Below, piece by piece: positions 9,703 through 63,485 of a stretch of DNA of 64,000 bases. Made by a program: the position numbers and the translations under genes. The stretch spans positions 288,001 through 352,000 of the forward strand of contig CAVSBO010000004.1 in assembly GCA_963726195.1 (NCBI GenBank). The letters are read 5' to 3'. Position 1 is the stretch's first letter, and each line of letters starts with the position of its first letter. Origin of the DNA: Candidatus Thorarchaeota archaeon (lineage in GTDB: Archaea; Asgardarchaeota; Thorarchaeia; Thorarchaeales; Thorarchaeaceae). The notes beneath the pieces are model-generated. The model had not been told where the DNA came from. It did no database searches and saw only the letters and a list, made by a program, of their open reading frames with translations.

Positions 9703-10958
9703 CTATCCGAAGTCAGTAAGCTGGGTCTGAGACATGAGTTCTGAATAGGTTTTGCTTACATCGAGCCAGCGCTGCACCGGGTTGGTCAGATGTAGACCGA
9801 TTTCGTTTACTGCTTCGCTCAGCGAAGAGAACTTCCTGGGAGGCGATGCAAGCGCACGACGGGCTATCTCTCTGAAGCGCCAGACACCGAGTGGCACCCA
9901 CTTGCTGGGGTCCACTTCCATGAATGCTATTACTCCTGCCTGTTTGTGAGCATCAGCAAGAAGCTCAAGGGCAGGAAGCCTAGTCGCATAGTAAGCTCCC
10001 ACTATCACTTGCGCATAGTCTTTTCTTCCCTTGAACCACTCATAGTCGGACATTACGGGTGGATTTGGTCCGCCAAGCCAACACTCAAGCGCCTCGAATT
10101 GCCAAGCAGTCGGCAGCAAGAGAAGAACCACCGTGTTTCCAAGCGCATGGTCTGCGTAAACTGAATAATCGTTTGTGACTGGGTACCTCAAAACCTCCTT
10201 GTGGAGCTCTTGCCCACTATGTCATCGACAGCTGTTATGCTCCATTGTGTAGGTACAAGTCTCCGAGTTCTCTTTAGACCAAGGAGTCCAATCGAAAGAA
10301 GCCTCGTCACATGCTCCTGTCTGATTCCTTCATGGAACAACTCGAGGACTCCGTCTCCTGCCTTCAGATCCGTGTCGGTGGTGATTCGGTCAATGGGTTT
10401 AGACACGTGAGGATTGTCCTCAAGCTGGAAATAGCTCAGTGGTGCTGACGGTCCAACGGGCAGGGTTCGCCCCGTGAGGACTGTGGTAAAAGACGGTCTC
10501 TTGATGAGTAGAGCCTCAGAAGAAGTGGGCGTGTCTGACAAAGCAAGAGTCTGGGTCTCTGCTAGGAGCCTTGGTGGGTTTATCGCGGCGTCTACTGGAA
10601 GGAATCTCTTAGTTCGAACGAGGCTGAACCTGTATGCTAGGATTTGGTCCAGTGTCTTGTCAAGCCACAGGTCTGGTCTCTCCATCAGTGCAGTCTCTTC
10701 TCCTCTCAAAGGAGGAATCAGAGGCCCCGCCAAGACCTTCGGGTATCCATAGCTACCGACGAACACCGCAGGTGGTGATGACCCCGCAAGGTTGAGACCG
10801 GTAACCGCTTGGTCGATGTTGAACAGAGCCCTCGCTCTCATTACGAGCGGACAAGGGCTGACTCCACAAAGGGCCCTGTGCCCCATGCATCTGGAGCAGA
10901 CTCGTTCGTCATATGACTGACCCGTGCTCCTCGTTGCTTCCAGATGTGTTTGAGGCAA
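9703..10958 (-). CDS. nreA: Nre (NreA-like) PCNA-interacting DNA repair protein, one frameshift near 10205
   Basis: N-terminal CSRCMG...LCG..PCP zinc site, GSSPP.VFVG..GYPKV..GP, RRLVPT.WSITAVDD, G.YYA.RL, VPLGVW..RE, C-terminal PIP box QTQLTDF. Confidence 0.9.
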
Positions 10959-25790: not shown

Positions 25791-27028
25791 ATGGGAAAAC
25801 TCGAAATGGGACTCAGAGCATCTGGACACTTCTGGAACATCATGACTATGTACGCCATGACCATAATAATGCGGGCGTCTTTCTATGTGAGCATCGCAGT
25901 CATCGGTAGTAAACTGGAGCCGCTAGAGTTGGCAGTTGTGTTTGGCGCCTACCCGCTTACAGAGTTGGTTTCGGTTTCCTTCTTCGGTTCCTACAGTGAT
26001 AAGATTGGCAGAAAACCGATATTCGTGGCCAGTCTGTTCATGACGTCTCTAGCAGCTTCTTGTTTTCCATACCCACCAACTTGTGGGTCTTGCTTGTTTT
26101 CTCTGTCGTGTTTGGCCTTGGTGCAGCCTCCCTAGTATCAACAACACTCTCCATGGTGGCCGACATGTCCTCAGAGACGAATCGTGCCCGATTGATGGGC
26201 TATTACGACATGTCGACACTGTTTGGTCTTGCAGGAGGTTTCGGCCTCGGTCTGATACTCTTGCAGTTCGGGTGGTCAGCATTTGCTATCCTCATCGGGG
26301 CATCAGCGGCCGCCGCCATTGCGGGGGTTGCTGCGCAGGTCTTAATCAAGGAGACTAGAACTGAAATACAGGCCGGAATCAGTGTGAGGCGTCTCATACG
26401 CAAAGTGGCAAGTGATAAGAGAATCCAGAAGCTCGTTCCAGTGTATGTGCCAATCATATCAATGTACGGGATTTTCATAGCATACACGGAGACAATTCTG
26501 AAAAATGAGTTCAAGCATTTGGCGGGTACTGACTTGTTGGTCCTTTTCGGGATTCTCGGTGCTTCTCTTGTCGTTGGAATAATAAGCATGAGTCATCTCT
26601 CGGACCATTATAATAAGCGGAGGCCATTCATCGTCACAGGACTTCTTGGATTTGGATTACTTGCTTATCTTTTGGTATCAAACTCAGCTGACATTAGCGC
26701 TCTCTGGTCAGTATGGCCCATACTCCCGATTCTTGGCTTCATAGCCGGGGCCTTTCCGCCTGCAGCAATGGCTTACCTCACCGATGTATCGGAAAGAGAT
26801 TCCCGAGGAGCCACAATGGGAGTCTACAGCATATTCTTCGGCACGGGTATGCTAATTGGACCCTTCTTAGGTGGGATTGCATATTTTTACTTCGGCCTGA
26901 TCGGTCTCGCTTTCATTGTGGCTCTCCTCATCGCAATCGCGATTGTCGGTACCTATCGCATGTCAGAGGTGCAGACTCTGAACCGGGAGGGAATGGAAGG
27001 CAAAGAGCTTCCGCTGAGCAAGAGTTAA
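25791..27028 (+). CDS. MFS transporter (frameshift near 26058)
   Basis: GSYSDKIGRKP and SHLSDHYNKRRP motif-A copies, about 12 TM helices. Confidence 0.9.
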
Positions 27029-27081
27029 TTAGCGAACGCATCATCCTTGGTCAGATAATACCCAGCAGGGGAGATTTGAGA

Positions 27082-27691
27082 ATGGTCAGAGTAACAACCA
27101 TCAGCAATGTGCTATCAGGAGTCGGCTTGGCAGTCTTAGGGTTCGCTGTGATTTTCAAGTTAATACCTGAGAACTTCCGCTCTTCAGTATCCAGATTATG
27201 CTTGGATGGTCGGCGCAGCGCTTTTCGTGCTTGTCATCATAATGAGCATAATCAACACCTTCACGGAGATGACAGGCTTCGTTCACCCAGATGACAAGCT
27301 CATTAGCAACATGTTTGTGTTCCTTATGGCAATCGCCACGATTCTCATCTATGGAATCCTAGATCAGGGTCTACTATTCCAGTACAGTCTTTACAATCTG
27401 GGTTCAATGATAGTCATCGCCTACGTGTTCTTGTTTGTCTTCTTGCTTTTCAGAGAGACCATCATGAAGGGCGGAGAGAAGGGCAAAGTGAAGGAGATGA
27501 CCGCTCGGTTCATGCTTGTGTCACTCTTTCTCGGTGCTGTAATGTCCGCTGTCAAGTTCGGATTGGATTTCATCTACATTTACATCGGGACGTATGCTCA
27601 TGCCTCCTTGGTACTAGGTATCTTCGCAGTGATACTCGTGATTGTAATCGCAATAGTCCTTGGAAGGCGATACGAACCAGTCTCTCAGTAG
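27082..27691 (+). CDS. Hypothetical membrane protein (frameshift near 27170)
   Basis: MVRVTT..TM continues into YAWMVGAALF after removing one A; about 6 TM helices. Confidence 0.7.
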
Positions 27692-52095: not shown

Positions 52096-53661
52096 TCATA
52101 TCGAGGGAGCACGTTTTGGTAACCAGATTCGGAAGTCTGCTCCCTGGCTAGGACAGCCAGCCACCCGATCCCGGACTCGGATTCGCCCACCGTATTTGTT
52201 AAGGATGTAAGCCGTCTGATGCAGTCCCACGCCACCAAAACGACGACCACTGTCGAACAGATATGCCTTTCTTCCATCATCGATTCCCGGACCGTTGTCA
52301 GCTACCGAGAGTTCATAGCCCTCGTCTCGCTCCAGAAGGCTTATCCAAACGTGCCTCTCTTGGAGGGGGTTGTGTACGACTGCGTTCTCGATTATATTGG
52401 TCAGCAGGACGTCTATGAACTTGCTAGCTAGTATGTTTGCGTCGCTGGAAATCGGGCCTACGTCTATTGTTGCATGTGTGAAATCTGTTCTGATATTGTT
52501 AACCGCTCTGTTGACCGCCTCTTTCAGTGATGTGGGATAAAGCGGAGTCTCACTGATGCGCTCCGTGGCCTTGGCCTTTGAAATCATCCTCGCGCATTTC
52601 TCAAGTGTTTCCTTCATCTCGTCAAGAACTGCTTGTCTTGCGTCAGGCTCCTGATGCGTTTCAAGCAGGTCAAGTCCCGCAGATATGGCTTGAAGATGAT
52701 TTCGAATGTCATGCCCCATGAGATCTAGGTATAGGTTAGCCAACTGCTCGGCTCTCTTGATCTGTGACACATCCCTGAAGCTCCACACGCGTCCACCCAG
52801 TTTCCCGCCTTGCGTCATTGGAGAAGAGTAGCATTCCATTAACCGGCCGTTCTTGAAGACAATCGTCATCAGGTCCGCTCCCGACGATGAGGTCAGTTGT
52901 TCGACTTTCTCGCTGAACTCCCCCGGCATCTCTAGTTGAAGTTGGAGCCAGCCGAAAACCTCAGACCAGTTCATCTTCATGATGGTTCCTTCTGGAATGC
53001 CCAGCATGTCCGTCAGGCGAGGATTGACGTGTTTGACTTTCCCCTCAGAATCGACGACGAGGACACCATTATCAGTAGATTCGATTGTCGCTCTAAACAG
53101 TGCCTCACTCTCACTCAAGATTTGCTCAGTCTTTCTCCTGTAGAGCGCCTCAGCGAAGACCGCAGCGACTGCCTCTATGTCTTTCGCATCTGCATTGTCA
53201 AAGCCGACATCTTTGTTGGCCAGCCCAATAACGCCAACAACTTTGTGTGCATAGGTCAGCGGCACACCCAAGAAATTATTGAGTGGTATATGGCCGTCTG
53301 GAACTCCAACTCGAGCTGGATGCAAACTGGGATGGTTCGTCAAGACTGTCTTTCCACTGAGCACGACCTGACCTAGTATCCCGTGGACCGTCATATGATT
53401 GAGTAGCTTCTTTGCCCGTTGTCTGTCAATCTTACAATCATCCAAGGCAGCAAGGTCCATAGCAAGATAGCTAAGTGTGCCATCAGGGTTCAGCTCGTTT
53501 ATTACTCCGAACTCGCTGCCGGTGATGCGCTGTGCAATCTCAAGACACCTCTCAGCCGCCTCCTGGTCAAGGGTTTGTTCGGCTGGGCTATCGGTTGAAG
53601 TAAACACCGAAGCGCTGTGAGGAGGGTCCTTGCCTTTCTTGGATTGTTCTCTGGTAGCCAT
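52096..53661 (-). CDS. GAF-PAS sensor histidine kinase
   Basis: GAF (G.P.GH.PL.NFLGVPL, GLANK), PAS, H-box LMGHDIRN, N-box NIIENAV.H, DNGPGI, G.GL. Confidence 0.92.
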   Translation of the reverse strand: MATREQSKKGKDPPHSASVFTSTDSPAEQTLDQEAAERCLEIAQRITGSEFGVINELNPDGTLSYLAMDLAALDDCKIDRQRAKKLLNHMTVHGILGQVVLSGKTVLTNHPSLHPARVGVPDGHIPLNNFLGVPLTYAHKVVGVIGLANKDVGFDNADAKDIEAVAAVFAEALYRRKTEQILSESEALFRATIESTDNGVLVVDSEGKVKHVNPRLTDMLGIPEGTIMKMNWSEVFGWLQLQLEMPGEFSEKVEQLTSSSGADLMTIVFKNGRLMECYSSPMTQGGKLGGRVWSFRDVSQIKRAEQLANLYLDLMGHDIRNHLQAISAGLDLLETHQEPDARQAVLDEMKETLEKCARMISKAKATERISETPLYPTSLKEAVNRAVNNIRTDFTHATIDVGPISSDANILASKFIDVLLTNIIENAVVHNPLQERHVWISLLERDEGYELSVADNGPGIDDGRKAYLFDSGRRFGGVGLHQTAYILNKYGGRIRVRDRVAGCPSQGADFRIWLPKRAPSI

Positions 53662-53836: not shown

Positions 53837-55663
53837 TCAGGTCACTTCATCTTTGTCGAGCCATTCTCTGAGTGTGTGTGCAGTCTTCTGTGACATGCCC
53901 TCGACTTTCGCAAGCTCCTCGATACTTGCTGACTTAACCTTCTCGTAGCTGCCAAATGCCTTCAGCAAGGCGGCCCTTCTCTTTGGTCCTATCCCCGGCG
54001 CCTCCTCGAGAATCGAGCCGCTGAATCTCTTCTCCCTTAGTATGTGGTGATACCGTTGCGCAAACCGGTGTGCTTCGTCACGTATCCTCTGAATCAGTCG
54101 CAGCCCGTCCGACTCTGGTGGAAGAGCTATCCCGTTCATGTTGTCCTGAGTGAAGATGATTTCCTCCTTCTTCGCAAGAGCAGCAATCGGGAGGTATTCA
54201 AGTCCTAGCTGACCCAAAGCCTTGAGTGCCGCGCTGAGCTGACCTTTTCCCCCGTCGACCATGATCAAGTCTGGAATGATGCCGCCTCCTTCCAGCACAC
54301 CCTTGTACCTTCTGAGTATTACTTCATGCATCATGGCATAGTCGTCAGGGGTCTCCTTCACGCGCACCCTGAACATTCGGTAGTTGTGGTTCACAGGTTG
54401 GCCATTGACAAAGACTACGCATGAGCCCGTGGGGTCGGTTCCCTGTATGTTGGCGATGTCGAAGCCCTCGATGTGGAGTGGAGCGCGGGTGAGTCCTAGA
54501 GATTCCTTGAGCTGTTTGACGCCTTCGTCAACTATGTCCTCGTCACGGTCTCCGAGTACGAGTATCTTGCGCAGGCTTCTCATAGCATTTGCATTAGCCA
54601 TCTTGACGAGCTCACTCGCTTTGCCTTCGGTCGGTTGAAACAGCTTGACTGGCGTCGCCCGGTTCTGGCTCAGCCAATCGCTGAGCTGTTCCATTTCCGG
54701 AATCTCAACAGGAAGCAGAATCTCATCAGGCACTTGTGGGAGTCTGAGGTAGAACTGCTCGACAAACGAAGAGAGGACCTCCGAGTCCGTTGTGTCCATA
54801 CTGAGTTCGAAATAGAAATGGTCGGTGCCAACGAGCCGACCCGTCCTGATGACGAGCATCTCAACCAGAGCAGCCTGCTCAGTTCTAGATATCCCGAGGA
54901 CATCCCTGTCGATCTCAGCGACATCGAAGACCTTCTGTTTCCTCATGACTATCTCTATGTCTTTGAGCCGATCCCTAAGTCTGGCAGCACTTTCGAACTC
55001 TAGATTGTTGGCAGCCTTATCCATCTCTTTCTTGACTCTTTGTGTGAGCTGGGCTTCCTTTCCCTCAAGGTATAGGCACATCTCTTCGACCATGGACCTA
55101 TACTCCTCTTTTGAGACGTGCTCCTTACAGGGTCCTGCACAGCGCCCGAGGTAATAATCGGTGCACTCCCTCTTGACCGCTTCAGGGCTCTTGCACATGG
55201 CTATTGGTATGAACTTGCGGGCAGAATCCAAGAATCTGTCCAGCCGTCTTGTGCTCCCATATGGCCCGTAGTAGTTGGCGCCGTCCTTCGCGACATCTCG
55301 AGTGACCTCAAAGACAGGGTACTCCTTGTTGAGGTCGACGCGTATCCATGCGTGCCTTCGGTCGTCCTTCAGGGCGATGTTGTACTTGGGCATATGCTGC
55401 TTGATTAGAGTCGACTCAAGAATGACGGCCTCGAGTTCGGTGTTTGTCACTATGGTCTCGAGGTCGCGGGCGTGGCTCATCAGGTCCCACGTTTTTGCGT
55501 CCTGTTCCTTCCTGCTCAGGTAAGAACTGACACGTTTACGTAGAGACTTGGCTTTTCCAATGTAAATGATCTTGCCTGCTTCGTCCTTCCAGAGATACAC
55601 ACCTGGAAGCTCCGGAAGGTCTCCAACCAGTTTGGCAAGATCGGACACATCACGAATCTCCAT
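53837..55663 (-). CDS. uvrC: Excinuclease ABC subunit C
   Basis: GIY-YIG (PGVYLW...IYIGKAK.L..RV.SY), C-C-CxxxC cluster, UVR, IEGFDI, PDL..VDGGKGQL, RDEAHRFA, HhH GIGPKR. Confidence 0.97.
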   Translation of the reverse strand: MEIRDVSDLAKLVGDLPELPGVYLWKDEAGKIIYIGKAKSLRKRVSSYLSRKEQDAKTWDLMSHARDLETIVTNTELEAVILESTLIKQHMPKYNIALKDDRRHAWIRVDLNKEYPVFEVTRDVAKDGANYYGPYGSTRRLDRFLDSARKFIPIAMCKSPEAVKRECTDYYLGRCAGPCKEHVSKEEYRSMVEEMCLYLEGKEAQLTQRVKKEMDKAANNLEFESAARLRDRLKDIEIVMRKQKVFDVAEIDRDVLGISRTEQAALVEMLVIRTGRLVGTDHFYFELSMDTTDSEVLSSFVEQFYLRLPQVPDEILLPVEIPEMEQLSDWLSQNRATPVKLFQPTEGKASELVKMANANAMRSLRKILVLGDRDEDIVDEGVKQLKESLGLTRAPLHIEGFDIANIQGTDPTGSCVVFVNGQPVNHNYRMFRVRVKETPDDYAMMHEVILRRYKGVLEGGGIIPDLIMVDGGKGQLSAALKALGQLGLEYLPIAALAKKEEIIFTQDNMNGIALPPESDGLRLIQRIRDEAHRFAQRYHHILREKRFSGSILEEAPGIGPKRRAALLKAFGSYEKVKSASIEELAKVEGMSQKTAHTLREWLDKDEVT

Positions 55664-55698: not shown

Positions 55699-58579
55699 TC
55701 AGGTCTTTGGAGGAGGCAGCGTAACCACGGCTGTGTGACGAGCGTTGGGACCGTAGAGGATGCTCTTGAGATGCTGCCCGGTGAATGACTCTGCTACTGA
55801 TGAAACCTCTTCTGGCGTTCCTGCAGCTACGACCGTGCCACCTTTGACCCCTCCTTCAGGACCGAGATCGATGACCCAATCTGCGGTCTTGATAACTTCT
55901 TGGTTGTGCTCGATGACAATGACGGTGTTGCCAGCGTCCACAAGGCGATTCAAGACCCTGAGGAGCACGTCGACGTCTGATGCGGAGAGACCAGTAGTAG
56001 GCTCATCCAGTATGTAGAGCGTGGAGCCGGTGCTTCTGCGTGAGAGTTCCGCAGAAAGCTTTACTCTCTGTGCCTCTCCTCCGCTGAGCGTGGTCGCAGG
56101 CTGACCCAGTTCAACGTACCCGAGACCGACATCGGAAAGTGTTTGGAGCCTGTCAGACTACTTGTGGAATGTCTCGGAAGAATTCCAGTGCTTCCTCGAT
56201 GTTCATTCTAAGAACTTCTGTGATGTTCTTGCCTTTGTATGTCACCTCAAGGGTCTCTCTGTCAAAGCGATTACCATTGCAGACATCGCACGTGATGTAG
56301 ACATCGGTCATGAAGTGCATCTCGACACGGAGCAGTCCGCTGCCTTGGCATTTCTCACATCTGCCAGCACGCGTGTTGAAGCTGAACCTGCCAGCCGTGT
56401 AGCCCCTTGCTTTTGCCTCCGGAGTCAGAGCAAAAAGCTTGCGAATCTCATCGAACACCTTTGTGTAGGTTGCAGGGTTTGATCGAGGAGTCCGTCCAAT
56501 AGGAGACTGGTCCACGAGTATCAGGCGGTCGATGTTCTCTGTCCCGTCAATCCTGTCGTGGTCGCCGGGAGTCTCTGTGGAACCGTTCATAGTCTCAGCC
56601 AAGGCCTTGTACAGGGTCTCATGGACAAGCGTGCTCTTCCCACTGCCTGACACGCCCGTGATACAGATGAACTTCCCGAGAGGAAAGGCGACGTCGATGT
56701 TCCTCAGGTTATTCTGGCGGGCACCTCTCACGACCATTGATTTTCCGTTGCCCTCTCTTCTTGTCTTGGGCACTGGTATCTGCTTCTTGCCCGCGAGGTA
56801 GAGTGCGGTGAGAGACTTGGGGTTTGCCAGCACTTCAACAGGTGTGCCGCATGCAACCAGCTTTCCTCCGTGGACACCGGCCCCGGGACCCAAATCCACG
56901 ATGTAGTCTGCCGCATTAATGGTGTCTCGATCGTGTTCGATTACCACAACTGTGTTGCCAAGGCTTCTGAGTCGAATGAGAGTGACAAGCAGTCGAGAAA
57001 TGTCACGAGGGTGAAGTCCCACCGAGGGCTCATCGAGGCAGTACAGGACACCAGTGAGCGCGGACCCAATCTGTGTTGCCAAACGGATTCTCTGTGATTC
57101 TCCTCCCGAGAGTGTCATAGATGGTCGTTCGAGCGAAAGATAGTCAAGCCCAACTGACACTATGAATGACAAACGTGACACGATTTCCTTCAGGATTAGA
57201 CCCGCAATCTTGTGCTCTCGCTCCGTCAACTCGATGTTCTTGAAGAAGTCGAGAGCATCTTCAATCGTCATTGATGTGATGCTGTCGATTGTCTTTCCCG
57301 CGACCGTCACTGCAAGGCTTTCTGGGCGTAGTCTTTTGCCGCCGCATGTCGCACAGACCTTCCTGCTTGAATATTGGCTGATGATTTTCTCTTTGGTCTC
57401 CTCGGAAAGTCTGCCACGCAGATGGCGCTCGAATCGAGGCACCATGCCTTCCCAAGTGCGAGTGATGCTAACTGTCTGAAGTCGTCCTTTGTAGTCAACC
57501 TGTTGGTAGGAGAACTTCACTCTGAGAGGAGGACGACCCCACATTATGATATCATGAACAGAGTCGGGAAGTTCGTCCCAAGGTGTATCCAGAGAGAATT
57601 TTGCTTCTGCCGCCAGAGCCTCTAGTAGGCGATAGGGCCAAGACTGCAGAGACCCGGCCCATGGCTTGATAGCCCCGTCCGTTAGACTGAGCCTATTGTC
57701 AGGAACTATCTTGTCCGGATCGATGCTGATGGTTGCACCCAGACCGTTGCAGGCCGGACACGCACCAGCAGGAGTGTTGTATGAGAAAGCCTTGGGTTCG
57801 AGCTTCTCGTACTGAATGCCGCAGTGTGGGCACATCAGTTTCTCCGCGAACACCATGTCCTGTTCACCCTCACGTGCGATAATCACTGAACCCTGTCCAG
57901 ACTCCAGTGCGGTCTCAATGGAACCCACTAGTCTTTCCCTGCTTTTTTCACCCAGCTCAACCCTGTCAATTACCACATCGACATTGTGTTTCTTGCGTCC
58001 ATCCAGTTCTAGCCCTTCTAGTTCCTGAATCTCTCCGTCAGCTCTCACTCGCGTGAAACCGTTCTCAGTCAGATGCTGAAGACTATCCTCCAGCTTTCCT
58101 GGCTCTTCTCTGGCAACGGGAGCGAGGACCAAGATTCTCTTGCCACCATTCTCCTGAAGCAAGAGCGTGGCGGCTGACTCGGCAGTGAGCTGCTCCATTG
58201 CAGCACCACACTTGATGCAGTGAGGGACGCCTATGTTGGCAAACAGAAGGCGCAGATAGTCGTGTATCTCCGTGCTTGTTCCAACCGTGCTTCGAGGGTT
58301 CTTCGTGCCGCCTTTCTGTTCAATCGAGATTGCAGGAGGCAAGCCGGTGATTGACTCAACTCTTGGCTTGTCGAGTCGACCCAGAAACCTTCTGGCATAT
58401 GACGAAAGTGATTCGACGTACCTCCGCTGACCTTCCGCGAAGATGGTGTCAAAGACAAGACTGGACTTCCCCGAACCTGACGGACCAGTAACGACAACGA
58501 GCCTATCCCGAGGAATATCAACATCGATACCCTTGAGGTTGTGTTCAGCGGCCCCTCGAACCTTGATGTAGCCTGTCAC
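55699..58579 (-). CDS. uvrA: Excinuclease ABC subunit A, second paralogue (+1 frameshift near 56155)
   Basis: [66 protein letters not shown], zinc fingers; continues in a shifted frame through TLSGGEAQR and LDEPTTGL. Confidence 0.95.
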
Positions 58580-61500
58580 GACCTCTTCCTCCTCGTCCCG
58601 CTACTCTGGACAGCCGTCTCAGGTTTCTCTTTACGAAGTATCTCTTTGAGATACCTTCCAGTGTATGAGTTCTCGCATCCGGCCACTTCCTCCGGGGATC
58701 CCTCTGCAATGAGGTAGCCGCCTTCATCGCCGCCCTCGGGACCTAAATCTATGACCCAATCAGCTGTCTTAACCACATCAAGTTGGTGTTCCACAACGAG
58801 TACAGTGTTACCCAAGTCCACCAGTTTGTGGAGAACCTCGAGCAGCTTCTTGATGTCCGCAAAATGAAGGCCAGTAGTTGGTTCGTCGAGAAGAATCAAG
58901 GTTTGACCCGTGGCAGGTCGTGAGAGGAACTTGCTGAGCTTGATTCTCTGTGCCTCGCCACCGCTGAGTGTGGTCGCGGGCTGACCCAGCTGAACGTAAC
59001 CCATGCCGACGTCATAGAGGGTCTTGAGCTTGCGATGAATTGATGGAATGTCTGTGAAGAACTCAAGCGCTTCGTCAGTCCTCATCGCAAGGATATCAGC
59101 TATGTTCTTCCCTCTGTAACGGACCTGAAGTGTCTCCCTGTTGTATCGCCGCCCCTTGCACTCAGCGCAGGTTACTTCGACTGGCGGCAAGAACTGCATC
59201 TCTATGACTTCAACGCCAGCGCCCTTGCACTTCTCGCATCGTCCGCCTTTTACATTGAAGCTGAACCTGCCCGGCTGGTATCCTCTGATCTTTGCCTCGG
59301 GCAGATTGGAGAGGAGGTCTCTGATGTCAGAGAACAGGCTAACATAAGTCGCGGGGTTAGACCTCGGCGTGCGGCCGATGGGGCTCTGGTCAATGATGAT
59401 GACCTTGTCTCACTGCTCAGCGCCAATGATTGCATCGCATTCGCCGGGCGTGGCCGTCGCGTTGTAGAACCTTCTTGCCAACTCCCTCTGAAGGGTCTCG
59501 TCTATCAGGCTCGACTTCCCGCTGCCCGATACGCCCGTGACACATACGAAGAGTCCCAGAGGTATGCGCACGTTGATGGACTTGAGATTATGATGCCGTG
59601 CACCCTTTATCTCAATGTATCTACCATTCGGCTGTCTTCGAACAGAGGGGACGGGTATCTTGTCCTCCCCCCGAAGGTACTTGGCCGTCAATGATTTCTT
59701 CGATGCAAGTACTTCATCGACCGTTCCTGCAACAACAACTCGACCCCCTTCATCACCAGCCCCGGGTCCCAGGTCAACGAGGTAGTCAGCAGCCCTCATT
59801 GTAGACTCGTCATGTTCTACCACGACTACGGTGTTCCCTATGTCTCGCAGGCTCTTGAGCGAGTTAAGGAGTCGCAGATTATCACGTTGATGAAGCCCGA
59901 TGGAAGGCTCATCACAAACGTAGGTAACTCCCACAAGATTGGACCCAATCTGACTTGCAAGTCGTATTCTCTGTGCCTCTCCGCCAGCAAGTGACGGTGC
60001 CGGCCGATCAAGTGTCAGATAGTCGAGACCAACCTCCACAAGGAAACCTATCCTTCCCATTATCTCTTTGATGATTGGATGGGCAATCGGTTCTTCTCTC
60101 GGCGTCAAGACCACGGATTGAAAGAACTTGGAGAGATCTTTGATGGACATCCTGTTCACGTCCGTTATCGACAGGTCCCTGAACTTCACGGCAGTCGACT
60201 CGGGTCGAAGCCGCAAACCCTTGCATACTGGGCACTCGTGATCGACCATGAACTTCTCGAGCCACTGGCGTATGTAGTTTGACTTGGTCGTCTTGTAGTT
60301 GCGTTCCATCTGTGCAATCACGCCGCGAAACGGACCGAGCGTGCTGCCCTCCCATTGGGTCTTTGCCGGGTCATCTCCCCAATGCCAGTCGATTTTGATT
60401 TCCTCGTTGCCAGTTCCCAAAAGGACCTTATCCCTATCCTCTGGCTTCAGGTCTCTCCACGGGGTGCTCATCGAAAACCCGTACTTGTCAGCGACTGCTT
60501 TGATGGATGATGAGTGGGCCATCCAGTTATAGGGTGCGATGGCTCCCTGAGATATGGAGAGCGAGTCGTCTGGTATTACGAGTTTCAGGTCAATCTCCCT
60601 GATTGCTCCCAATCCTGTGCAGCTCGGACAAGCGCCGTGGGGGGTGTTCCAAGAAAACAGACGCGGCTCCATCTCTGGCAAGCTTATGCCGCAGTCAACG
60701 CACGCAAACTTCTCTGAGAGAGTAAGACTGCCGGAATCGGTGGCGATGGTCACAACTCTGTCGGCCATCTTTAGCGCGGTCTCTACGGCTTCTGAGATCC
60801 TTGCTCGCTGTGAGTTGGAGACCTTGAGCCGGTCGATGACAACTTCGATTGTGTGCTTGTAGTAACGGTCCAGTGACATGCCCTCTTCGATGTCTTTCAG
60901 TTCTCCATCGACGCGGACTCTGACAAATCCCTTCTCAAGCAGGTCGCGGAACTCTTTCCTGTACTCACCTTTCCTTTCTCTAACAATCGGTGCCATTATG
61001 GCAATGCTTGTCCCCTCTCCAAGGGCAAGAACCCTATCGACAATCTGCTGGGCAGTCTGGGGTTCGATTCTCTTGCCGCAGTTGGGACAGTGGGGAACAC
61101 CGACACGGGCGAACAGAAGCCTCAGGAAATCATAGATCTCTGTGATAGTGCCGACCGTGCTTCTCGGATTGTGACCTGCGCTCTTCTGGTCAATCGAAAT
61201 CGATGGGGATAGGCCAGACATGTAGTCCACCTTGGGCTTCTCAAGCATGCCGAGAAACTGTCGAGCGTAAGCTGAAAGCGATTCCACGAAGCGGCGCTGC
61301 CCCTCTGCGAATATCGTATCGAATACCAGACTGGACTTGCCCGAACCAGAGACACCAGTGACTACCGTCAGCTTGTTCCGAGGAATCTGCAGGTCGATGT
61401 GCTTGAGATTGTGCTCTGCAGCGCCACGAATGACGATGTCCTGTGGACCTTCCGTGTCCAGCTGAACGCTTTTGGCACGAGACCTAGACCTTGATGCCAT
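58576..61500 (-). CDS. uvrA: Excinuclease ABC subunit A, first paralogue (in-frame TGA at 59410-59412)
   Basis: GVSGSGKSS twice, [43 protein letters not shown]; ORFs 59410-61500 and 58576-59199 are in the same frame. Confidence 0.95.
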
Positions 61501-61503
61501 CGA

Positions 61504-63485
61504 CTACCGCCCTTCAATCTTCGTCTGCAGTTCACGAATCTGGTCTCGCAGTTCCGCAGCCTTCTCGAAATCGAGGTTCCTTGCTGCTTCCTTCATGTCT
61601 TCCTCAAGATTCACAATCAGCTCTGTGATGTTCTCCAAATCGACTAGGTCAAAGTCAGCTATCTTGGCCTGCTTAGGCTTCTTCTTCGATGGGATGCGCT
61701 CAGCAATATCGTATACGGATTTCACTATGGTCTTGGGCGTGATACCGTGTTGCTCGTTGTATCGCAGCTGGTACTCCCTGCGCCGGTTGGTCTCATTGAT
61801 TGCCGCCTGCATCGCCGCAGAGACATGATCACCGTAGAGTATGACCCGTCCGTTGACATTCCTTGCAGCTCGTCCCATTGTTTGAATGAGCGCCCATTCG
61901 CTTCTCAGGAAACCCTCCTTGTCAGCATCGAGAATGGCCACAAGGGAGACTTCTGGCAGGTCGAGACCCTCCCTTAGGAGGTTAATGCCAACGAGCACGT
62001 CGAATCTGCCAAGACGCAGGTCACGGATGATCTCTATGCGCTCAACCGTATTGATGTCCGAGTGAAGATACCTAGCCTTCACGCCGTTTTCCACTAGGTA
62101 TTCCGACAGCATCTCAGCGGTCTTTTTCGTGAGCGTAGTCACCAGCACTCGCTCATGTCTGGCCGCGGTCGTCCCTATCTCAGCCAGCAAGTCGTCGACC
62201 TGATTTCCAACGGGCTTCACTGTTATTTGCGGGTCGATCAGACCAGTAGGTCTCAGTAGCAATTCTACAATCTGACTACTTGCCTTTCTCTCATATGGCC
62301 CCGGTGTCGCGCTTGTGAAGATTGTGTGTTTCATGTAGCCCTTGAACTCATCGAACTTCAATGGACGATTGTCGTAAGTCTGACGGGAGTCTGAAACCAT
62401 AATCGACGAGGCTCTGCTTGCGAGATATGTCCCCGTGATACATCCCTTCCACCTGTGGAATGCTCATGTGGCTCTCGTCAATAATCATCAGAAAGTCTTC
62501 TGGAAAGTAATCAAGGAGACAGTAGGGCTTCTCACCCTGCTTCCTGCCGTCTATATGTCGGGAGTAGTTCTCGACACCCCCACACGATCCGGTCTGCCTG
62601 AGCATCTCCATGTCGTAGAGCGTCCGTCGGCGGAGCCGATCTGCCTCGACGAGCTTCCCCTGCTTCTTGAACCACTCAACGCGCTCTTCCATTTCGGCTT
62701 CAATCGAGTCCAAGGCGGCGATAGTTTTCTCATGGCGGGCTACGTGGTGCTTTGCAGGCCAGATGTCTATCCCGCGTTCCTCGAATATCCTGCGGGATGT
62801 CAGTGAATCAACTATTGATATTCGGTCTATCCTGTCGCCGTCGAGCTGGAGCCTTGTGGTCTCCGACTCGTAACCCGGATGAATGTCAATTACATCTCCA
62901 CGCACGCGAAATGTACCTGCTTTGAGTTCCATGTCGTTGCGCTCGTACTGCATTGACACTAGCTTTTCGAGAAGCGCGCGTCTTTCAATCTCTTGGCCCA
63001 CCTCAAGCGTCAGAGCAAGCTCGGTATACTCTTTGGGGTCGCCGAGGTTGTAGATACAGGAAACAGAAGCCACGACCACAACATCACTGCGGGTCTTGAG
63101 AGAGCGTGTGGTGGAGTTACGAAGCCTGTCTATCTCTTCGTTGATGTCCGTCTCTTTCTCGATGTACATGTCTTTGCTGGGAACATAGGCTTCTGGCATG
63201 TAGTAGTCATAGTATGAAACGAAGTACTCGACTGCGTTTTCGGGCAGGAAATTTCTGTACTCGGCTGCGAGCTGGGCTGCAAGTATCTTGTTGTGAGAGA
63301 TGACGATGGTGGGCTTTCCGTACTGAGCTATGACGTTGGCCATGACGAAGGTCTTGCCGGAGCCCGTGACACCGAGCAGAGTCTGCTCCTGAAGCCCACT
63401 GTTCAGGCCCTCCACGAGCTTCTGCAGCGCGTCGGGCTGATCTCCAGTGAGTTTGAACGGGGCAACCAGACTTGAAGTCCGCCAT
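61504..63485 (-). CDS. uvrB: Excinuclease ABC subunit B (+1 frameshifts near 63470 and 62380)
   Basis: [58 protein letters not shown]-terminal UVR. Confidence 0.97.

Follow-up and report, generated by a model that had tools for sequence, protein, structure and literature searches.

The window analysed here is a stretch of 64,000 nucleotides from a Candidatus Thorarchaeota archaeon (contig CAVSBO010000004.1, assembly GCA_963726195.1). Its central feature is an excision repair operon in which two canonical, selected and co-transcribed uvrA genes lie beside a single uvrB and a single uvrC. The genes were located by open reading frame (ORF) listing, translation and profile matches. The original prediction, made from the DNA letters alone, described a uvrB-uvrA1-uvrA2-uvrC operon, and all four uvr genes are found in this order on the minus strand (Table 1). 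The span that it named for the four genes, 55699–61500, contains both uvrA genes; uvrB and uvrC lie outside it. The junctions are as it described them. The uvrB stop codon TAG is separated by 3 nt from the uvrA1 ATG at 61500, the uvrA1 stop TGA (58578–58576) shares the bases GTGA with the uvrA2 start GTG (58579–58577), and uvrC starts 35 nt past the uvrA2 stop. In addition, a GAGGAGG motif is present at 58594–58588, which is 9–15 nt upstream of the uvrA2 start. The prediction spoke of archaeal repair, and the small-subunit ribosomal RNA bears this out, scoring 1320 bits with the archaeal model and 996 bits with the bacterial one.

Asgard archaea carry UvrABC (PMC12993045). In this genome the uvrA genes adjoin uvrB and uvrC equivalogs and thus belong to a UvrABC operon. 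Each of the two uvrB pieces alone scores under the TIGR00631 cut-off, because a frameshift splits the gene. uvrB is present in a single copy in the genome, and uvrA1 and uvrA2 (A1 and A2 when the proteins are meant) are its only class I UvrA copies. A same-genus genome, Ca. Thorarchaeota OWC5 (G002), was used as reference. Its orthologues of uvrA1 and uvrA2 are intact, with protein identities of 92% and 93% respectively (959 aa for uvrA2), and its uvrC is 91% identical.

Table 1. Coordinates of the uvr operon and of related UvrA loci (window positions unless a locus or contig is named)
Feature	Position	Strand	Description
uvrB	61504..63415	-	two frames, 63415..62348 and 62400..61507; pieces match TIGR00631 23-369 and 369-658
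uvrA1	58576..61500	-	class I UvrA, 974 codons, in-frame TGA at 59412-59410
uvrA2	55699..58579	-	class I UvrA, ~959 codons, GTG start, +1 frameshift ~56155-56158
uvrC	53837..55663	-	intact, 608 aa; TIGR00194 532.5 bits, cut-off 285
uvrA1/uvrA2 junction	58576..58594	-	GTGA overlap and GAGGAGG within the uvrA1 3' end
Fused double class I UvrA genes	L030:3999-9749, L060:2657-8446, L058:2746-8631, L059:2604-8483		two other Asgard families
Extra unlinked UvrA loci	L063-L067 (G117:C44, G101:C20, G093:C1, G008:C5, G017:C50)		

Both A1 and A2 are, by their sequences, canonical class I UvrA proteins. The G002 orthologues score 1422 bits (A1) and 1372 bits (A2) with the UvrA equivalog model NF001503, for which the cut-off is 1147, and cover positions 4–942 of its 943. 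In the window the pieces of uvrA1 cover positions 4–681 and 684–942 of the same model and those of uvrA2 positions 5–807 and 809–941. With TIGR00630, for which the cut-off is 729.8, the larger pieces of the two genes score 888 and 1096 bits, and residues 22–955 of A1 align with solved UvrA structures. The motifs that had been claimed for both copies are present: each has two Walker A motifs, two signature motifs, Walker B, the H-loops and three zinc modules. The Q-loop II, Walker, signature and H-loop motifs are conserved in both the A1 and the A2 clade, as are all cysteine pairs of the zinc modules, including the C-terminal zinc finger. Clade-specific motif changes are minor: signature I reads LAGGE in most A1 proteins, and Walker B II is followed by TTGLS in A2. 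The UvrB-binding region is likewise kept; in both copies this domain and the insertion domain have their canonical lengths, 133 and 136–139 aa, the same as in single-copy UvrA.

The strong divergence between the copies, said to lie chiefly in the insertion domain, is also found. A1 and A2 are 51% identical overall, with 67% identity in the N-terminal ATPase part, 37% in the UvrB-binding domain and 26% in the insertion domain. At this level of identity the pair is not an assembly duplicate, a possibility that is also rejected by the presence of the pair in dozens of genomes. The insertion domain is the fastest-evolving part within each clade, and the UvrB-binding domain is equally constrained within both (identity 0.67 and 0.64).

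The distribution of the pair was scanned in 400 genomes of the phylum. The tandem arrangement is found beyond this assembly: all fetched loci of the family that span the operon have the order B-A1-A2-C, and in G019, a genome of the same order outside the family, B-A1-A2 runs up to a contig end. Two full-length UvrA matches are present in 57 of the 65 family genomes with a match. Eight genomes have a single match, and in at least four of these the match abuts a contig end. Of 17 relatives, 14 have loci that keep the 4-nt overlap of the uvrA1 stop and the uvrA2 start. In this locus, as in every other of the family, A1 and A2 are set apart by a stop codon. Most other Asgard families contain one UvrA, including those with closed genomes of 4.4 Mb and 6.0 Mb. 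These single-copy genomes are arranged B-A-C, and the Thorarchaeota state is therefore B-A-C plus a second uvrA.

Further UvrA-family genes are found elsewhere in Asgard genomes. A well-supported clade of unlinked, extra full-length UvrA proteins (~945–975 aa, 40–44% identity) occurs in some of them, including two members of the Thorarchaeota family; these copies (L063–L067) diverge at dimer-contact and DNA-inserting positions. A third UvrA-family gene of this genome, of a doubled type of ~1,620 aa, lies outside the window, ~52 kb upstream (G000:C4:235786-240641). It is intact in G002 (contig C17, 1,619 aa) and in other Asgard genomes, and is in three frames here.

A maximum-likelihood tree of 71 rows (LG+G4) was built with care, and a quicker tree retained the partial A2 row of G019. 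The expectation of two old clades is borne out, with A1 and A2 each monophyletic at 100% support. The internal branching of the two clades broadly matches. G019 is basal in both clades of the quick tree, and the pair is therefore older than the family. The sister group of A2 is the single-copy UvrA found in two further Asgard families (support 99/97), and that of A1 is the set of N-terminal halves of fused double UvrA proteins (support 99/98).

These fused proteins are found in two Asgard families (f5 and f20), in which one ORF of 1,916–1,961 aa comprises two full UvrA units. In G041, the one genome of this type for which all UvrA matches were listed, the fused ORF is the sole full-length UvrA. 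uvrB and uvrC were not found within 3 kb of the fused genes. The C-terminal halves have a degenerate Q-loop II, signature and H-loop II and have lost one cysteine pair of zinc module 2. The distance from the last conserved motif of the first unit to the first motif of the second is 35–43 residues in the fused proteins; the A1 tail and A2 head together make 34. Given this match in linker length, one shift of frame within the GTGA overlap could be enough to interconvert the split and fused forms.

Double UvrA proteins are not confined to Asgard archaea. A Poribacteria bacterium has a 1,913-aa double UvrA (L052:5068-10809) whose halves are sister to each other, and which therefore arose by an independent internal duplication and fusion. 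A protein search was made of 1.84 billion representatives, clustered at 50% identity. Among the best 150 matches, most are far longer than one UvrA and are matched in two or more stretches. Single-chain UvrA 'dimers' are therefore common and, as far as we found, have not been studied.

Relaxed selection in one copy had been named as an observation that would speak against a heterodimer, and none was seen. The ratio of nonsynonymous to synonymous substitution (dN/dS) was calculated on the same-genus pair with G002, where dS is ~1; between genera dS is saturated. It is 0.043 for uvrB, 0.036 for uvrA1, 0.041 for uvrA2 and 0.034 for uvrC. The dN of the two uvrA genes is alike and is not above that of uvrC. 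Values of ~0.04 at a dS of ~1 mean that these genes are not long-standing pseudogenes.

UvrA homodimer contacts have been published for 15 residues (PMC12796330), and these were mapped via the alignment of A1 to solved structures. Fixed differences between A1 and A2 are found at four of the 15: position 55 (F/Y), 82 (S/P), 84 (S/A) and 508 (V/T). There are 36 fixed-difference sites in 936 positions, and against this background the contacts are enriched (binomial p 0.002). Three further fixed differences stand beside the phenylalanine at the tip of the C-terminal zinc-finger hairpin, which also contacts the partner subunit. In G019, R65 and P82 are already present in A2, and A1 retains the canonical residues; the two copies thus diverged step by step. 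A pairing of Y with F at position 55 is also seen in all four fused proteins, in which the two residues are swapped between the halves as compared with A1 and A2. These contact differences hint at an asymmetric A1/A2 interface but do not prove one.

We therefore favour, on indirect evidence, the reading that A1 and A2 form a heterodimer, because the stop/start coupling is conserved, relatives carry fused one-gene forms and fixed differences fall at the dimer contacts. This is the best reading of the locus, and we give it a probability of about 0.55. The conserved arrangement of the two genes probably yields a mixed A1/A2 sensor pair. In this bacterial-type UvrABC operon, two full-length class I paralogues of ancient divergence would have taken the place of the single uvrA. 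Both would be made from one message, with uvrA2 translated via the stop/start overlap and the Shine-Dalgarno-like motif within uvrA1, and this coupling may favour near-equal amounts of A1 and A2. The A1-A2 heterodimer would then bind the single UvrB of the genome via both UvrB-binding domains. It may correspond, in unfused form, to the double-length, single-chain UvrA of two Asgard families and many other organisms.

The main rival to the heterodimer is a pair of separate homodimers, A1 and A2, which are co-expressed, differ in the lesions or DNA structures that they prefer and share one UvrB and one UvrC. Such an arrangement would suit two copies that keep all ATPase, zinc, UvrB-binding and insertion-domain features and whose DNA-contacting insertion domains are only 26% identical, and unlinked extra full-length copies are indeed kept in some other Asgard genomes. 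It fits less well with the stop/start overlap being kept in most relatives, with the fixed differences on published dimer contacts and with the fusion of two UvrA units in related lineages, the N half being orthologous to A1. Nor was a family genome seen that has a single copy, the eight single-match cases including those at contig ends. On balance we think two homodimers less likely than a heterodimer.

Several points weigh against the heterodimer itself. Every catalytic and zinc motif is kept in both copies, so that in principle either could pair with itself. Coupling within the operon is just as compatible with two homodimers that are co-expressed. The enrichment at contacts is marginal if the comparison is restricted to positions that both clades conserve (Fisher p 0.053), and the contact substitutions are conservative. 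The assignment of F and Y at position 55 in the fused proteins is the opposite of what orthology between A1 and the N half leads one to expect. Lastly, the quick search favoured A2 grouping with the fused C halves and the careful tree did not: the best tree keeps them apart, and a constraint that groups them is not rejected by the approximately unbiased test (p-AU 0.21).

A stronger form of the heterodimer proposal is that Thorarchaeota use an obligate asymmetric A1-A2 heterodimer with permanently divided protomer roles. We hold this tentatively, at somewhat below even odds. Roles of 'recognition' and 'support' protomer have been observed in a Mycobacterium tuberculosis UvrA2-UvrB1 intermediate, and recent structures indicate that the two UvrA protomers differ in behaviour after lesion binding (PMC11985968). 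Speculatively, a permanently asymmetric dimer would hard-wire the two roles that homodimers adopt transiently on damaged DNA. One insertion domain might recognise the lesion, and the other might give support and release first for the loading of UvrB.

The original prediction was of two full-length uvrA genes of ~960 aa in tandem. The tandem, full-length pair stands; neither gene is one uninterrupted ORF in the window. Three of the four operon genes (uvrB, uvrA1 and uvrA2) are broken in this assembly within 9.6 kb, and these breaks had been overlooked. In G002 all four uvr genes are single intact ORFs, and the uvrB orthologue has 667 aa. The TGA of uvrA1 (in the context AEQ*DKV) stands opposite the leucine codon CTC of G002. 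The frame changes in uvrA2 and in uvrB (~62374–62380) are each due to one extra base in the window relative to G002, and a DNA alignment of the whole operon contains only these two frame-breaking indels in coding regions.

The background rate of breaks was estimated from 338 kb of G002, in which ORFs of at least 200 aa were compared with this genome. Here 41 of the 170 sampled ORFs are broken, mostly by frame changes. This corresponds to a frameshift in about every 7 kb of coding sequence, or ~1.3 expected in the uvr operon. The assembly has 19 contigs and a completeness of 88.9%. Since the genes are intact in G002, dN/dS is ~0.04 and about a quarter of the sampled ORFs are broken alike, we take the two frameshifts and the uvrA1 TGA to be errors of a low-accuracy assembly and not biology. 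What weakens this conclusion is that it is drawn from background rates and not from raw reads.

Two other accounts of the breaks were considered. In the first, the breaks are real and the excision repair operon of this strain is newly decaying to pseudogenes. This would suit the hits on three of four uvr genes within 9.6 kb and the division of the unlinked, doubled UvrA-like gene into three frames. It is improbable, as unrelated genes are broken in the same manner, the background rate alone predicts a frameshift in the operon and dN/dS is ~0.04 for all four genes over a dS of ~1. Decay specific to the uvr genes was accordingly rejected. In the second, the TGA and the two +1 shifts are programmed recoding, by read-through or frameshifting, which a zero-frame TGA at two of the three sites might seem to favour and which is scarcely credible, since in relatives the frame is unshifted at these sites and the codons are ordinary sense codons, a slippery sequence is absent from the sites and the other in-frame stops of the genome are TGA, TAG and TAA opposite mixed residues in G002, so that an alternative code for TGA was also rejected.

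Other genes in the window have a similar appearance. The archaeal Nre gene (9703–10958, minus strand) is likewise split, with part of Nre_N at 10958..10188 and the remaining Nre_N and Nre_C at 10191..9703. Positions 26060–27691 (plus strand) contain three overlapping ORFs, and the match of the first to MFS_1 begins only at profile position 83; the stretch may be a further transporter gene with a broken frame. The next gene after uvrC, also on the minus strand, codes for a sensor histidine kinase-like protein (52096–53661). Any claim of a split gene in this genome needs a control for background breaks. The practical message of the window is that its operon is ordinary for the family and that the apparent breaks are a problem of assembly quality.

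To our knowledge, all work on UvrA has dealt with the homodimer. The literature searched contained no account of class I uvrA genes in tandem or of a UvrA heterodimer. Diverged and co-translated A1 and A2 genes would allow one protomer to be mutated at a time. The pair would also provide a tractable form with two subunits to which the many double-length UvrA proteins, as yet unstudied, could be related. If the heterodimer is obligate, it would be a natural split system for dissecting the asymmetry of UvrA.

Three known systems are comparable with A1 and A2. One is the canonical class I homodimer (NF001503/TIGR00630; structures 9gxk, 2r6f, 3pih and 3zqj), with which both proteins share the full domain set, and here too uvrA is flanked by uvrB and uvrC. 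It is encoded by one gene in all studied systems, whereas here there are two diverged genes coupled by stop and start codons, with fixed differences at four of the 15 positions through which the homodimer makes contact.

The class II UvrA proteins, which include Deinococcus radiodurans UvrA2 (2vf7), DrrC and Ecm16 (7sh1), are likewise second UvrA-family proteins in a genome. They have neither the UvrB-binding domain nor the first zinc module and work without UvrB (PMC9328131). A1 and A2 both retain this module and this domain and are therefore not members of class II.

The third comparison is with the double-length UvrA proteins of the chlamydial type, of f5 and f20 and of Poribacteria. These likewise consist of two complete UvrA units, which are made at a fixed ratio of 1:1. 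NCBIfam has a model for the chlamydial double UvrA (NF001885, 1,809 positions), with which A1 and A2 score 714 and 697 bits against a cut-off of 3054, and they do not belong to the fused type. In the Asgard double proteins the N half is sister to A1 and the linker matches the A1 tail and A2 head in length. A double-length UvrA is one chain, whereas A1 and A2 are separate polypeptides, and the C halves of the Asgard fused proteins are degenerate in their motifs, whereas A2 is fully canonical.

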